Part shown: piece by piece, positions 10,061-42,430 of the stretch | Numbering within the stretch: the stretch's first letter is position 1 | How the letters are laid out: each line of letters begins with the position of its first letter | DNA from: an uncultured SAR324 cluster bacterium | GTDB taxonomy: Bacteria; SAR324; NAC60-12 | Length of the DNA stretch: 64,000 nucleotides | Assembly: GCA_905182865.1 (NCBI GenBank) | Contig: CAJJCY010000003.1 | Location: 393,740 to 457,739 of the forward strand | Reading direction: 5' to 3' | Made by a program: the position numbers and the translations under genes | The notes under the pieces: generated by a model | What the model saw: the letters and a program-made list of their open reading frames with translations, nothing else | The model's database searches: none | What the model was told of the DNA's origin: nothing

Positions 10061-13048
10061 TTGCACGACAAACAAATGATTAATTGCCAAAATGAGATGC
10101 AGTATGGAGTGTTGATGAAAAACTTTTTTGTCTTTTTCCGTAAAATAATACCGGAAAAAAGCTGCTGTTTTGTTTTTATCATTTTGCTGCTCTGTTTTTC
10201 TTCATCTACGGCGGCAAAGGAGGAAGACTCTGAAAAACTTAAAAAAGATTATTTCCTATCACAAAGTTTGAAACTGGGAAAGAAACCGGTTCAGTCCGCT
10301 TTTTTCTCACCAAATGACCAGCAGGCTGTCATCTTGTCCGGAAGTTCTTCTCTGGAAATATTCAGAATTCAAAATGGAAAAAGACTGAGTGTAATTTCCA
10401 GTCATGAACATAAGGCCATTTCACTTGTCCTTCATGCTGGAGGAAAGTTGGCGGTGACCGGAGGGCAGGATGACACTGTTAGAATTTGGAGTACTGACCA
10501 GAGCACTGTACAGGCAGTTATGCGGGGTCATCTGAGTGCTGTTTCCGAACTTGCTCTTAATACTGGAGGAGAGATTTTGGCTTCTGGAAGTCTTGACGGA
10601 ACCGTTATCCTGTGGAACATGAAAGAACATGAATTGCTGAAATCTACCAAGGTTATCGGTAAAAGCAGCATAAAAAGTCTGGCCTTCCATCCGAATGGCA
10701 GAATTCTCGCCATTGGTGGAGAAGATGGAAGTTTACAATTTCGAAGTATCCCTGAAATGAAACTGATAACCACCCTCTCTGGTCATAAAAATTCGATTAA
10801 TGATCTTGAATTTAATCCGCGTGGCGATTTATTTGTTTCCGCCTCTGAGGATGGGAAAGTGATTATCTGGGATTGGAAAGTCAAAAAACAACGTTCCAAA
10901 ATAAACTTTGAAGAGGCTGTTTCAACAATAAGCATCAATCCAAAACTTGCAGAGATTGTTGTTGGAACTGCAGGAGGGAGACTTGAAACATGGAGTCTTG
11001 CAAAAGGAACATTGCTGCATCAAATCACTGAATCCGGTCCCTTGATTAGCAGTGCAGGATATGACAGAAACGGAAGCAGGATTATTTCTGCACTGGAAGA
11101 TGGAACTGTGCAGATCTGGGAAAATGGGGTATCACTGCATATGAAAACATTCAGCGGTCATGAGCGGATCGTTGAATCGCTAGAATTTTCGCAAAACAAC
11201 AAGTTTCTCATCAGTTCCTCCTCCGATAAAAGCGTACGTATCTGGGATCTGAAAACAAATGAGAGCGTACACAATTTTGATATCGGTAATCACAGGGTGC
11301 AGGACCTTCGTTTTGCTCCCGGAAGCCAACAATTTGCTACCGCGGGAACGGACAGTTCTGTGATAATCTGGGATGCAAAAGATGGAAGTCGCGTTCGTAC
11401 CTTGAAATTTCACAAAGGAAAAATCAATACCATCAGCTATCATCCTCAAGATTCAGTACTGCTTTCCGCGGGTTCTGACAGGAAGTGGGTACTATGGGAT
11501 TTGGTTTCCGGAAAGTCCCTGCTTTCTCATAAAGGGCATACCTCTCAAATATTAGCGGCATCTTTTTCTCCAGACGGCAAGCGCTTTGCCACTGCCGGCA
11601 GTGACCTTTTCATAAAAATCTGGCAATACCCTCAGGGAGAAGAGCTCGGACAACTCAAAGGACACAAGAAACCTGTTAGAACTCTGGCCTTCAGTCCCGA
11701 TGGTAAATTGCTTGCGAGCGGTTCACAGGACAATCAGATTTTTCTATGGGGACTTGAACCGGAAATTTCAAAGACTCCTTTCCGAAAATTAGTTGGACAC
11801 AGTGACACTGTTACTCAGATATTTTTTTCCATATCTGGAAAAGCATTGATTTCAATTTCCAAAGACAAAACGATGCGCCTGTGGGAAGTAAAAAGCGGTA
11901 ACATGCTGCGCATACTTCATGCTGACGCTACTCCTCTTTTTGCCGCTGCGCTAAGTCCAGACGGGAAATTAATTGCATTAAGCAACCTGACAAATGATAT
12001 TACCATCCTCACATTTCCAACCGATATTCCGGAGTTGCAGGATGATAAAGGTGACGTTTCAGCATCCGGAGAAACTGTTAATTCAGCAAGTTTACAAACT
12101 TCTGAGTCAGATTCGGATGCATCGGATAAATACGGAATTGACTTGGAGAATTTGAAGGAAATGGAAAAACTGCCGATGACTGCAGAAGAATTACGTGCCT
12201 ATGCTGTGACTGAAACCGAAGATTTATCAACAGTTCAATACGACTTGCAGCATCGTCTTAATCTGCTTCTTAAAACAAAAGACACGTGTCTGCATGCTGC
12301 AGAGATGGAAAAACTGGCACTGAAAATATTAGTCATTGTTCCTGATGATTTGGCTGCATATCATGCATTGGTCAAGACGTCTATCCTCAAACAGGATTTT
12401 GCAACACTGAGTCTGTTTGTAAGTTCGGGGTATTTTGCAGAATTGGATCAAGAACTTTATGATTATATTTCCATATTGGAAGTTAGAAATATTTTTGATA
12501 ATTTACGATTTGAGCTTTTTGATCAATCGTTTGTACGTCAGGGTAACAAACAAAAAATAAAATTGGAAAACTGCAAAGTCAATCCTCTCTCAGTCAGCTT
12601 ATCAGGAATTTCCTGGAACTTACGTTATCCAGTTGAGTTTTTAAAAAATATAAATTCTATACCTCGTTTGATTGACTTGCGGGAATATATGAATTTGCCG
12701 CAGAAAGAGTTTCAGGACAGGATGTTTGCTGAGATAGAACGGATTCTCGGAAGCAAGACTCCTCATTCTACTTCATACCTCCCGAAAACACCGGAAGAGC
12801 GGTCAGAAAAGGTTCCGGTAGGAATACTGAATTTAAATCTTGAAAAAGCCCAGACCTGGAAAGATGACGGCATGGCTTCATTTAGCTTACGTAAACTAGG
12901 GGGGCAGTGGCAGAGCTACCAAACCGATCGGGATAACAGAATTGTCATGCATCTTCCTGCAGGAAGTTATTCTCTGAAAGTTGCAGGAGTTTTAAGAAAA
13001 ACATTTTTCCTCATTGACGGCACCCAGCTAGACCTGTCTATTGATTAA
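10061..13048 (+). CDS. Large WD40-repeat protein with an N-terminal signal/TM segment and a ~330-aa C-terminal domain of unknown function. The probable start is the Met near 10115.
   Basis: About 13 tandem WD40 units ('GH..SV..LA....G..LASGS.DGTV..W' pattern repeated). The hydrophobic N-terminus is 'FVFIILLLCFSSSTAA'. Confidence 0.8.
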   Translation: MHDKQMINCQNEMQYGVLMKNFFVFFRKIIPEKSCCFVFIILLLCFSSSTAAKEEDSEKLKKDYFLSQSLKLGKKPVQSAFFSPNDQQAVILSGSSSLEIFRIQNGKRLSVISSHEHKAISLVLHAGGKLAVTGGQDDTVRIWSTDQSTVQAVMRGHLSAVSELALNTGGEILASGSLDGTVILWNMKEHELLKSTKVIGKSSIKSLAFHPNGRILAIGGEDGSLQFRSIPEMKLITTLSGHKNSINDLEFNPRGDLFVSASEDGKVIIWDWKVKKQRSKINFEEAVSTISINPKLAEIVVGTAGGRLETWSLAKGTLLHQITESGPLISSAGYDRNGSRIISALEDGTVQIWENGVSLHMKTFSGHERIVESLEFSQNNKFLISSSSDKSVRIWDLKTNESVHNFDIGNHRVQDLRFAPGSQQFATAGTDSSVIIWDAKDGSRVRTLKFHKGKINTISYHPQDSVLLSAGSDRKWVLWDLVSGKSLLSHKGHTSQILAASFSPDGKRFATAGSDLFIKIWQYPQGEELGQLKGHKKPVRTLAFSPDGKLLASGSQDNQIFLWGLEPEISKTPFRKLVGHSDTVTQIFFSISGKALISISKDKTMRLWEVKSGNMLRILHADATPLFAAALSPDGKLIALSNLTNDITILTFPTDIPELQDDKGDVSASGETVNSASLQTSESDSDASDKYGIDLENLKEMEKLPMTAEELRAYAVTETEDLSTVQYDLQHRLNLLLKTKDTCLHAAEMEKLALKILVIVPDDLAAYHALVKTSILKQDFATLSLFVSSGYFAELDQELYDYISILEVRNIFDNLRFELFDQSFVRQGNKQKIKLENCKVNPLSVSLSGISWNLRYPVEFLKNINSIPRLIDLREYMNLPQKEFQDRMFAEIERILGSKTPHSTSYLPKTPEERSEKVPVGILNLNLEKAQTWKDDGMASFSLRKLGGQWQSYQTDRDNRIVMHLPAGSYSLKVAGVLRKTFFLIDGTQLDLSID

Positions 13049-32236: not shown

Positions 32237-32680
32237 CTATTCCAGTTTAAATACCCTATCAAAGACTCGGCGTAAAAAATCTGGCTGCTGCTCTCCATTT
32301 AAGGTGCTGATTTTTGTCCCGTCAGGTTTAAAAAAGAGCAGAGTGACTTTGCTGACGTTGTGATATTCTGCAAACCAGCGTCCTTCTTTGGAGTTCAGAT
32401 TAGCAACTAGGAAACGTATTTTCCCTTTATATTCCGGCTGGAGCGAGTTGACCACCCGCTTGAGTGCACGGCAGGAAGGTCAACCGGGGTCATGAATCTG
32501 GACTACTATGTTTTCTCCCTTGCCGATTGCTGACAGGTCTTTGTCTTCTTCTGTGCTGTCAAGCCATATCCAACCAGCAAGAACAAGTATCAGCACGCTC
32601 GTAATGGAAACCAGCCAACGAACATTTTGTCTTCGGTGAGCTTTTTTGGAAGAACCTTTTACCCTTCGATGTTTGCTCAT
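32237..32680 (-). CDS. Membrane-anchored thioredoxin-fold protein with an in-frame TGA (putative selenocysteine) at the CxxC position. Reads '...VVQIHDPG-U-PSC-RALK...'.
   Basis: ORFs 32480-32680 and 32237-32455 are in the same frame, separated only by TGA at 32480-32482. The join aligns residue-for-residue with the thioredoxin WCGPC region. There is an N-terminal TM helix. Confidence 0.65.
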
Positions 32681-32786: not shown

Positions 32787-33194
32787 ATGGAAATTATTAC
32801 ATGGGGCGATATTCGTCGGGGTACATTAGCCATCGTTCTTGTGATCGTGCCAACTGTTTTGCTTGGAACATATATGGGTCCGGTACTGAAAAGTTACCAG
32901 ATTACAGGGCCTGGACTGTGGGAACTGAAACGCAAAGGTGCTCCGGATACCCTGATTGAACCACTGCATGAGTTGCGGCTAAAACCATTCTTTTTTAAGT
33001 TTCGACTAATGAGTGAAGTGGAGTCCAGAATTTCTAATGAAGATTTATTCAAAAAATATGAAAAGAAAATAGAGCGTCAAATCTCAGGTATAGCCATGCC
33101 TGCAGTTGAGTATATTTTTCTTACTGTTTTAGCAGCTTATTATTGGATTTTATGGTTTGTAACTAGGAGATGGTTCCCTGATGGAAAAGTATGA
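32787..33194 (+). CDS. hypothetical membrane protein
   Basis: Two predicted TM helices and no motif. Confidence 0.3.
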   Translation: MEIITWGDIRRGTLAIVLVIVPTVLLGTYMGPVLKSYQITGPGLWELKRKGAPDTLIEPLHELRLKPFFFKFRLMSEVESRISNEDLFKKYEKKIERQISGIAMPAVEYIFLTVLAAYYWILWFVTRRWFPDGKV

Positions 33195-42342: not shown

Positions 42343-42430
42343 GGAGAGTTGTCAGAGTGGTCGATTGTGGTAGATTTGAAATCTGCTGTACGGCAACGTA
42401 CCGGGGGTTCGAATCCCTCCCTCTCCGCCA
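42343..42430 (+). tRNA. tRNA-Ser (anticodon UGA), class II with a long variable arm
   Basis: Acceptor GGAGAG/CTCTCC. Anticodon stem GTAGA/TCTGC with loop TTTGAAA. T-arm GGGGG-TTCGAAT-CCCTC. 3' end GCCA. Confidence 0.8.

Follow-up and report, generated by a model that had tools for sequence, protein, structure and literature searches.

The window analysed here is a 64-kb stretch from the genome of a SAR324-cluster bacterium, and its subject is a short gene, with coordinates on the minus strand, that a mechanical list of open reading frames (ORFs) gives as two halves of 66 and 72 aa. We conclude with high confidence that these two small ORFs form one gene, coding for a membrane-anchored thioredoxin-like protein, predicted to face outward, in which selenocysteine (Sec, U), encoded by UGA, stands in for the active-site cysteine. 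The centre of this reading (one gene, a thioredoxin fold, an N-terminal anchor and a UxxC motif) had been put forward in an original prediction and is upheld by the conserved TGA, the cysteine found in homologues, the purifying selection downstream, the fold and the charge pattern. Few bacterial lineages of the dark ocean are as abundant as SAR324, whose use of selenium is, to our knowledge, barely documented.

Translation of the minus strand gives a frame that runs from ATG 32680-32678 to TAG 32239-32237 and comprises 147 codons, with TGA 32482-32480 as the sole internal stop; 66 codons precede this TGA and 80 in-frame codons follow it up to the TAG. This agrees with the earlier statement that the two ORFs share one frame and are parted only by the TGA. 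The joined product came out on re-translation exactly as it had been written, ...GENIVVQIHDPG-[TGA]-PSCRALKRVVNSL..., and the translation of the whole frame is MSKHRRVKGSSKKAHRRQNVRWLVSITSVLILVLAGWIWLDSTEEDKDLSAIGKGENIVVQIHDPG-[TGA]-PSCRALKRVVNSLQPEYKGKIRFLVANLN...FKLE-[TAG]. The TGA takes the place of the first Cys in the CxxC motif of thioredoxins, which reads HDPG-U-PSC here. A Shine-Dalgarno-like AGGA is located ~9 nt upstream of ATG 32680, and no comparable motif is present in the window sequence upstream of GTG 32455, where the 72-aa half starts.

Relatives of the protein were gathered by a protein search and then by family-alignment scans of genome and metagenome collections, which brought in 160 loci, and the codon following V-Q-[IV]-H-D-P-x was tabulated in all fetched loci (162 copies). 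This codon is TGA in 94 copies, TGC in 43 and TGT in 25, and no other codon was found. The TGA copies all belong to the SAR324 / 'Lambdaproteobacteria' clade, in which every copy (94/94) carries it, at 57-98% amino-acid identity and in 52 distinct 102-nt contexts from independent genomes and metagenomes; among them are 18 of the 18 species-level SAR324-clade genome representatives retrieved, together with dozens of ocean metagenome contigs. The original prediction had proposed looking for Cys at this position in homologues, and all 68 copies outside the TGA set do encode it, in an uninterrupted ORF; they come from 'Deltaproteobacteria bacterium TL4' and from alpha- and gamma-proteobacteria. 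The HDP before the TGA and Cys70 at +3 are invariant in Sec and Cys forms alike. The best genome match to the window is the metagenome-assembled genome SAR324-CTD7B (97% identity), and 390 blocks of the public collection contain the identical 66-aa N-terminal product, the longest contig measuring 862,857 bp. The recurrence of the TGA in independent copies rules out both a base-call error and a private nonsense mutation.

The sequence after the TGA is evolving as a translated protein under purifying selection. When 15 homologues were compared with the window over the 78 codons after the TGA, the changes were found mainly at third positions, the same pattern as before the TGA. The comparison with locus L013, for example, gave 6, 4 and 30 changes at codon positions 1, 2 and 3 after the TGA, corresponding to 24 synonymous and 10 non-synonymous codon changes.

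Three kinds of match were returned by the protein search: full-length proteins with 'W' at the Sec position, fragments that end or start near it, and full-length proteins with Cys. In every case the 'W' of the ENA calls corresponds to TGA in the fetched DNA. These are gene calls on short contigs (L001, L002 and L006-L010; proteins P0002-P0008) that render the Sec-TGA as Trp, and since the true terminal TGA of L002 is also rendered W, the letter denotes a code-4 gene call and not a Trp codon; the code-4 model was evidently chosen because a longer ORF results. The genetic code of the window is standard, given that TGA is its commonest stop codon and closes 19 of its 41 ORFs that reach 200 aa or more. 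None of the database entries inspected is annotated as a selenoprotein; they are split into 'hypothetical proteins' (NCBI, JGI, ENA, Tara) or mistranslated with Trp. The 'WxxC' proteins of metagenome catalogues constitute a systematic artefact, one that could be mined for selenoproteins.

A single contig shows a different arrangement. At L003:5001-5414 (= L102; KiloMoana contig JYMV01021840.1) the gene, otherwise identical to that of SAR324-CTD7B, has lost 30 nt cleanly and in frame, precisely the codons for IHDPGUPSCR, which hold the active site and the TGA. What is left is an uninterrupted ORF of 137 aa, the only 'full-length' NCBI/JGI protein of the clade. Only this contig shows the deletion, which represents either a naturally inactivated allele or an artefact of assembly.

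With U written as C, the joined protein matches the Pfam family Thioredoxin (PF00085) at 29.1 bits, against a gathering score of 23.5. No NCBIfam model, those named (seleno)protein included, reaches its cut-off (TrxA 28 vs 96.8; DsbE 11.7 vs 359). As a stand-in for the window protein we used an AlphaFold2 model of the TL4 Cys orthologue (62% identical), computed with the family alignment. In this model residues 50-149 have a predicted local distance difference test (pLDDT) value above 90 and follow the order beta-alpha-beta-alpha-beta-beta-alpha. The top PDB matches of the model in Foldseek are all thioredoxins, with E ~3e-7, a target-normalised template-modelling score of ~0.8 and a root-mean-square deviation of 1.9-3.1 A. 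In the comparison of the family profile with PDB sequences, HDPgCgsC is aligned to WAPWCGPC, with the motif at the N-terminus of helix 1, and on this alignment U would replace the nucleophilic Cys. The earlier placement of the TGA on the nucleophilic Cys of the redox motif is therefore confirmed by the profile, which aligns it to the first Cys of WCGPC.

A cis-proline is nearly universal in thioredoxin-fold oxidoreductases. In this family, 'rVT' is aligned to the thioredoxin 'IPT' (alignment A1), so that the cis-proline is replaced by an invariant V112-T113. The Val112 codon lies at window 32344-32346, and a Val-Thr pair is invariant at this place, with no cis-proline, in Sec and Cys forms.

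An N-terminal transmembrane helix and a periplasm-facing domain had also been suggested, and the predictions bear this out. A helix is predicted at the equivalent place of the TL4 model, with low pLDDT. In 19 of the 19 Sec forms examined, a strongly hydrophobic 19-mer is preceded by a charge of +6 to +9 and followed by one of -3 to -5; with the positive-inside rule applied to this pattern, an N-in/C-out orientation is predicted for all of them. Among the Cys homologues of loci L030-L090, which are alpha- and gamma-proteobacterial, 48 of 61 display an RRxhh motif of twin-arginine-like type ahead of a less strongly hydrophobic stretch, and because of this motif they are also predicted to be exported. 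The RRxhh motif is absent from the Sec forms (19/19), which have the highly hydrophobic signal anchor instead. It seems that Cys and Sec versions are exported by different routes.

Within the coding sequence, the RNA 3' of the UGA contains a candidate Sec insertion sequence (SECIS). For an alignment of 49 distinct SAR324 sequences (A2), RNAalifold returned a single consensus structure, in which columns 44-50 pair with columns 56-62; these correspond to window 32460-32442. This hairpin is paired in 96.9% of cells; sliding its 3' arm by 1-3 columns brings the figure down to 26-53%. In 3 sequences pair 46-60 has changed from C-G to A-U (Arg CGN becoming AGR and Ser TCG becoming TCT); pair 47-59 keeps its G-U across a Ser-to-Leu replacement, and pair 48-58 is G-U, A-U or, in 9 of the 49 sequences, a U-U mismatch. 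Without recourse to a structure model, the codons under the hairpin are also seen to be near-frozen (AAG 48/48, GTG 48/48, GTC 47/47, AAC 45/46, TCG 42/45, CTC 42/48), while the same amino acids elsewhere in the gene (Lys, Val, Ser) are drawn from 2-4 codons. The synonymous entropy of the 7-codon window at +7 is the minimum of 93 such windows (0.168 vs a median of 0.62). The hairpin 19-mer occurs once in the 64 kb, and in 64 of the 68 Cys homologues the in-register hairpin has at most 3 of its 7 pairs. Taken from comparative sequence, this makes hairpin 32460-32442 a real candidate SECIS.

The original prediction had proposed another SECIS-like stem, which includes the UGA itself and pairs GGUUGACC with GGUCAACU. 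Such a stem does form in the window sequence: together with a CCUGC/GCGGG helix inside it, it appears in the minimum free energy structure of the single sequence. It is not conserved, and it competes with hairpin 32460-32442. Its columns are 84% paired in the 49 sequences with zero compensatory changes, and pairs 21-56, 25-52, 26-51 and 30-48 are broken in 13, 29, 25 and 26 of them, respectively. Folding downstream of the UGA, as had been recommended, gave an energy for the window no better than that of shuffled sequence (z = -0.36), and the SECIS assignment was moved to 32460-32442. We rejected the GGUUGACC/GGUCAACU stem as a functional element for its lack of covariation and its four pairs broken in 13-29 of 49 sequences. 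As the UGA lies inside it, this stem would presumably be melted when the UGA is in the A site.

The closest Cys-encoding homologue is the TL4 gene (L005:2919-3368; L005 / L029, JBBCAX010000198.1), which has TGC in the motif HDPNCPYC. Its hairpin is perfect, AGCGAGU-GGUCA-ACUCGCU, with 7/7 pairs. In a neighbour-joining tree TL4 nests within the Sec clade, a placement that is tentative because the tree is built from ~99 residues only. In sequence, TL4 looks like a Sec-to-Cys reversion that has kept a 'fossil' SECIS.

Several observations weigh against Sec decoding at this locus. The covariation of the hairpin is scanty, consisting of the one C-G to A-U switch in a single sub-clade (3 sequences), and is accompanied by the 9 U-U mismatches. 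Being intact in the Cys-encoding TL4 gene, the hairpin by itself is no proof that Sec is inserted. Rfam gave no SECIS match, neither for the whole window at the gathering threshold nor for 32350-32560 at E<=10, where only chance matches appeared. Measured against the E. coli fdhF SECIS (NC_000913.3), the apical-loop GGUC is shifted 8 nt away from the UGA, to nt 30-33 instead of 22-25 counted from the U of UGA. ARAGORN detected no tRNA-Sec in the 64-kb window or in 19 related loci (~20 kb), only tRNA-Ser, and no SelA, SelB or SelD was recognised by Pfam among the ten size-matched ORFs of the window, which include a WD40 protein, an ABC permease, FlgK, PGI and MatE, among others. Finally, two SAR324 single-cell genomes are listed as 'orphan SelD', a class without known selenium trait, in a survey of Sec utilisation (Peng et al., 2016; PMC5029168, Table 1 vs Table S2).

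On balance the published record, though mixed, leans in favour: under 'all Sec-utilizing organisms' the same survey enters a further SAR324 cluster bacterium, JCVI-SC AAA005, and credits it with six known selenoproteins (Peng et al., 2016; PMC5029168). Because single-cell genomes are partial, the 'orphan SelD' listing is weak evidence of absence; the thioredoxin-like family may lie outside the query families of that survey. In the light of the present gene, the 'orphan' calls seem to stem from genomes that are incomplete or from selenoprotein families not yet recognised. In the literature searched, SAR324 is connected with selenocysteine or selenoproteins nowhere else. As to the spacing, the five loop nucleotides GGUC(A) occupy nt 30-34 from the U of UGA. 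bSECISearch accepts a UGA-to-loop range of ~16-37 nt, within which this spacing falls. No further credible selenoprotein gene was found in the window when TGA-split frames and GGUC-loop hairpins 15-30 nt after a TGA were considered.

If translation truly ended at the TGA, the product of the locus would be a membrane peptide of 66 residues, with a separate 72-residue fragment from GTG 32455 or with none. Public gene calls present it in this way, as halves of 66 and 72 aa that are separate 'hypothetical proteins', several contigs calling the 66-aa half only, and the GTG is invariant in 48 of 48 sequences. However, this invariance continues into GTC AAC TCG CTC and is explained by the hairpin, which covers the GTG, a codon that lacks a Shine-Dalgarno motif. 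The eight codons from TGA to GTG (xSCRxLKR) are conserved at the protein level, with the invariant resolving Cys among them; the thioredoxin fold and its active site straddle the TGA; and homologues outside the clade all have Cys there in an uninterrupted ORF. We consider termination extremely unlikely. Very unlikely, too, is read-through of the UGA by an ordinary near-cognate tRNA (Trp, Cys or Arg), which would give a selenium-free WxxC, CxxC or RxxC protein, with the hairpin acting as a read-through stimulator or pause element. The two SAR324 genomes reported with SelD only and the persistence of the hairpin in the TL4 gene would fit such a process, but a UGA that is clade-deep at the position of a catalytic Cys, while all outgroups encode Cys there, represents the classical Sec/Cys signature, and the hairpin fits bacterial SECIS elements both in where it lies and in having a G-containing GGUC loop. 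Besides, 6 selenoproteins are catalogued for one SAR324 genome, which counts as Sec-utilising, and if Cys were the product a change from TGA to TGC or TGT would be favoured, which within the clade is seen nowhere but in TL4.

A pseudogene, a sequencing or assembly error, or an alternative code in which TGA means Trp or Gly could be argued from the W in the ENA calls and from the active-site deletion in contig L003. These explanations are refuted: the W stems from code-4 calls on short contigs whose DNA reads TGA, as the W at the terminal TGA of L002 makes plain, and the TGA is kept in 94 independent copies under purifying selection in a lineage whose window uses TGA to end 19 of 41 long ORFs. 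On the strength of the comparative data, UGA 32482-32480 very probably encodes selenocysteine. We infer that Sec, rather than another residue, is inserted at the UGA, and the doubt that is left concerns mostly selenium-independent read-through or termination.

The selenoprotein reading suggests the following mechanism. The product would be a 147-residue type-II membrane protein composed of a basic tail, one transmembrane helix and a periplasmic minimal thioredoxin-fold domain with a U-x-x-C motif. During translation, UGA 32482-32480 would be decoded as selenocysteine. Because the GGUCA hairpin starts 19 nt after the UGA, it should lie just outside the mRNA channel when the ribosome reaches the UGA and the codon occupies the A site; there it could act as a bacterial SECIS, presumably by binding SelB and recruiting SelB-GTP-Sec-tRNA(Sec). 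The mature protein may then work as a selenol/thiol-disulfide oxidoreductase on the outer face of the inner membrane, with Sec67 as the attacking nucleophile and Cys70 as the resolving residue. Both the oxidoreductase role and the membrane topology are deduced from motif, fold and charge.

Thioredoxin-fold UxxC selenoproteins are among the commonest prokaryotic selenoproteins in marine metagenomes, where the UxxC families comprise Trx-like 1-3, DsbA-like, Prx-like and UGSC-containing proteins (Zhang and Gladyshev, 2008; PMC2398784). The SAR324 gene resembles the Trx-like UxxC selenoproteins known from Global Ocean Sampling (GOS) data and from deltaproteobacteria in having Sec at the first UxxC position, a thioredoxin fold and marine hosts. 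It also shares with GOS UxxC selenoproteins Cys homologues that are far more widely spread, and a predicted SECIS with apical-loop guanosines just after the UGA. One gene copy is present on a GOS contig (L130, AACY023701436.1), and the peptides of this gene were not found in the accessible part of GOS Dataset S1. The motif of the window protein is UPSC; Gly follows U in 20 of 48 distinct SAR324 sequences, and UGSC is common in the clade. Compared by description, the UGSC-containing family is nonetheless a poor fit, as it is described as lacking a Pfam domain and as more frequent in non-marine samples (Zhang and Gladyshev, 2008; PMC2398784), whereas the SAR324 protein matches PF00085.

The E. 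coli fdhF SECIS is likewise a hairpin within the coding sequence 3' of the UGA, with an apical GGUC and a lower region that is free to melt. It differs in the place at which the GGUC begins (nt 22 vs nt 30 in the SAR324 gene) and in its architecture: the SAR324 hairpin is a plain 7-bp helix with a 5-nt loop, without a conserved bulged U and without a conserved UGA-containing lower helix. At the protein level, the TlpA / ResA / CcmG-DsbE type shares with the SAR324 protein, as predicted here, an N-terminal anchor or export signal, an extracytoplasmic thioredoxin-fold domain and a CxxC-type motif. Unlike these proteins, that of SAR324 is a minimal thioredoxin fold of ~100 residues with no Redoxin or AhpC-TSA Pfam match, its nearest solved folds are soluble thioredoxins, and its neighbourhood contains no cytochrome-c maturation or copper-chaperone genes. 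Canonical TrxA (TIGR01068 / PF00085) has the same fold and the same position of the redox motif. In contrast to TrxA, the SAR324 protein is predicted to be membrane-anchored, its motif is HDP-x-U/C-x-x-C and not W-C-G-P-C, Val-Thr takes the place of the cis-Pro in IPT, and the TrxA equivalog TIGR01068 is not reached (28 bits vs a cut-off of 96.8). The parallel with anaerobes that had been drawn at the outset is superfluous here, SAR324 being a pelagic marine lineage.

We regard the gene as a new addition, so far unannotated, to a familiar class of marine bacterial selenoproteins; mechanistically it holds no surprise, and the understanding of how selenoproteins work is left unchanged by it. More tentative, and in our judgement somewhat doubtful, is the broader proposal that the family, for which PGAP/NCBIfam offers no model, stands in no curated catalogue and is universal in the SAR324 phylum, a signal-anchored, extracytoplasmic minimal thioredoxin without the cis-proline, with Tat-type (twin-arginine) Cys orthologues in other proteobacteria and a TL4 member, nested in the clade, that reverted with a 'fossil' SECIS. 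If true, the family would be a compact natural model of how Sec and SECIS are gained and lost, and also of selenoprotein export by the Sec/SRP (signal recognition particle) route rather than Tat. Recognition of the gene corrects annotations and adds a marker of the Sec trait for SAR324 genomes, and its well-defined candidate SECIS (GGUCA loop, 19-nt spacer) could seed searches for the remaining SAR324 selenoproteome. The gene further suggests that selenium-dependent redox chemistry takes place at the outward side of the inner membrane. The coordinates of its features are collected in Table 1.

Table 1. Features of the predicted selenoprotein gene (positions in the 64-kb window).
Feature	Position	Strand	Evidence or description
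Complete gene of the predicted selenoprotein	32237..32680	(-)	Frame; Pfam Thioredoxin match; 94 SAR324-clade copies alike; third-position bias on both sides of the TGA
In-frame TGA, predicted selenocysteine codon, residue 67, nucleophilic-Cys position	32480..32482	(-)	Codon tabulation; alignment to WCGPC
Resolving Cys codon TGC, residue 70 of UxxC	32471..32473	(-)	Invariant C70 column; Cys in 48/48
Basic tail, predicted cytoplasmic, residues 1-21, MSKHRRVKGSSKKAHRRQNVR	32618..32680	(-)	Net charge +9 in the 20 residues before the helix
Predicted single transmembrane helix / signal anchor, residues 22-40, WLVSITSVLILVLAGWIWL	32561..32617	(-)	Mean Kyte-Doolittle hydropathy 2.18
Thioredoxin-fold domain, residues ~47-147, predicted periplasm-facing	32240..32542	(-)	TL4 AlphaFold2 model; PDB matches; profile alignment
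Candidate bacterial SECIS, AGCGGGU-GGUCA-ACUCGCU	32442..32460	(-)	7 bp, 5-nt loop 32453-32449; starts 19 nt after UGA; codons K74-L80
Stem of the original prediction, GGUUGACC 32485-32478 with GGUCAACU 32453-32446	32446..32485	(-)	Forms here, not conserved; excludes the conserved hairpin

The neighbours of the gene are scpB, a 135-aa membrane ORF, an exonuclease-III-like (xthA-like) gene, rsmG (GidB), fliW, csrA and flagellar genes. The synteny is SAR324-wide and is common to none of 62 non-SAR324 loci, and the Cys homologues have no conserved neighbour among their own loci; the context therefore holds no clue to the substrate. The 135-aa ORF (window 32787-33194, plus strand) has hydrophobic segments and no Pfam match and is oriented divergently to the selenoprotein gene. 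It is matched in 18 of 18 SAR324-clade genome loci, lies directly upstream in the SAR324 contigs inspected, and does not occur in the vicinity of Cys homologues from other phyla.

About 9.7 kb upstream of the gene, the window carries a tRNA-Ser with anticodon UGA (42343-42430, plus strand), which is not a tRNA-Sec. In related SAR324 genomes the syntenic tRNA-Ser has anticodon CGA (L011:215-303, L017:45-133, L023:979-1068 and L025:1204-1293), and among these is L011, with a thioredoxin-like protein 97% identical to that of the window. The D-arm and the variable arm also differ between the UGA and CGA tRNA-Ser genes, which suggests that one tRNA-Ser isoacceptor gene was replaced by another at the same site. 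Elsewhere in the window (10061-13048, plus strand) we observed a 995-aa protein made mostly of WD40 beta-propeller repeats, with a very strong Pfam WD40 match and a size that is unusual for a bacterium.

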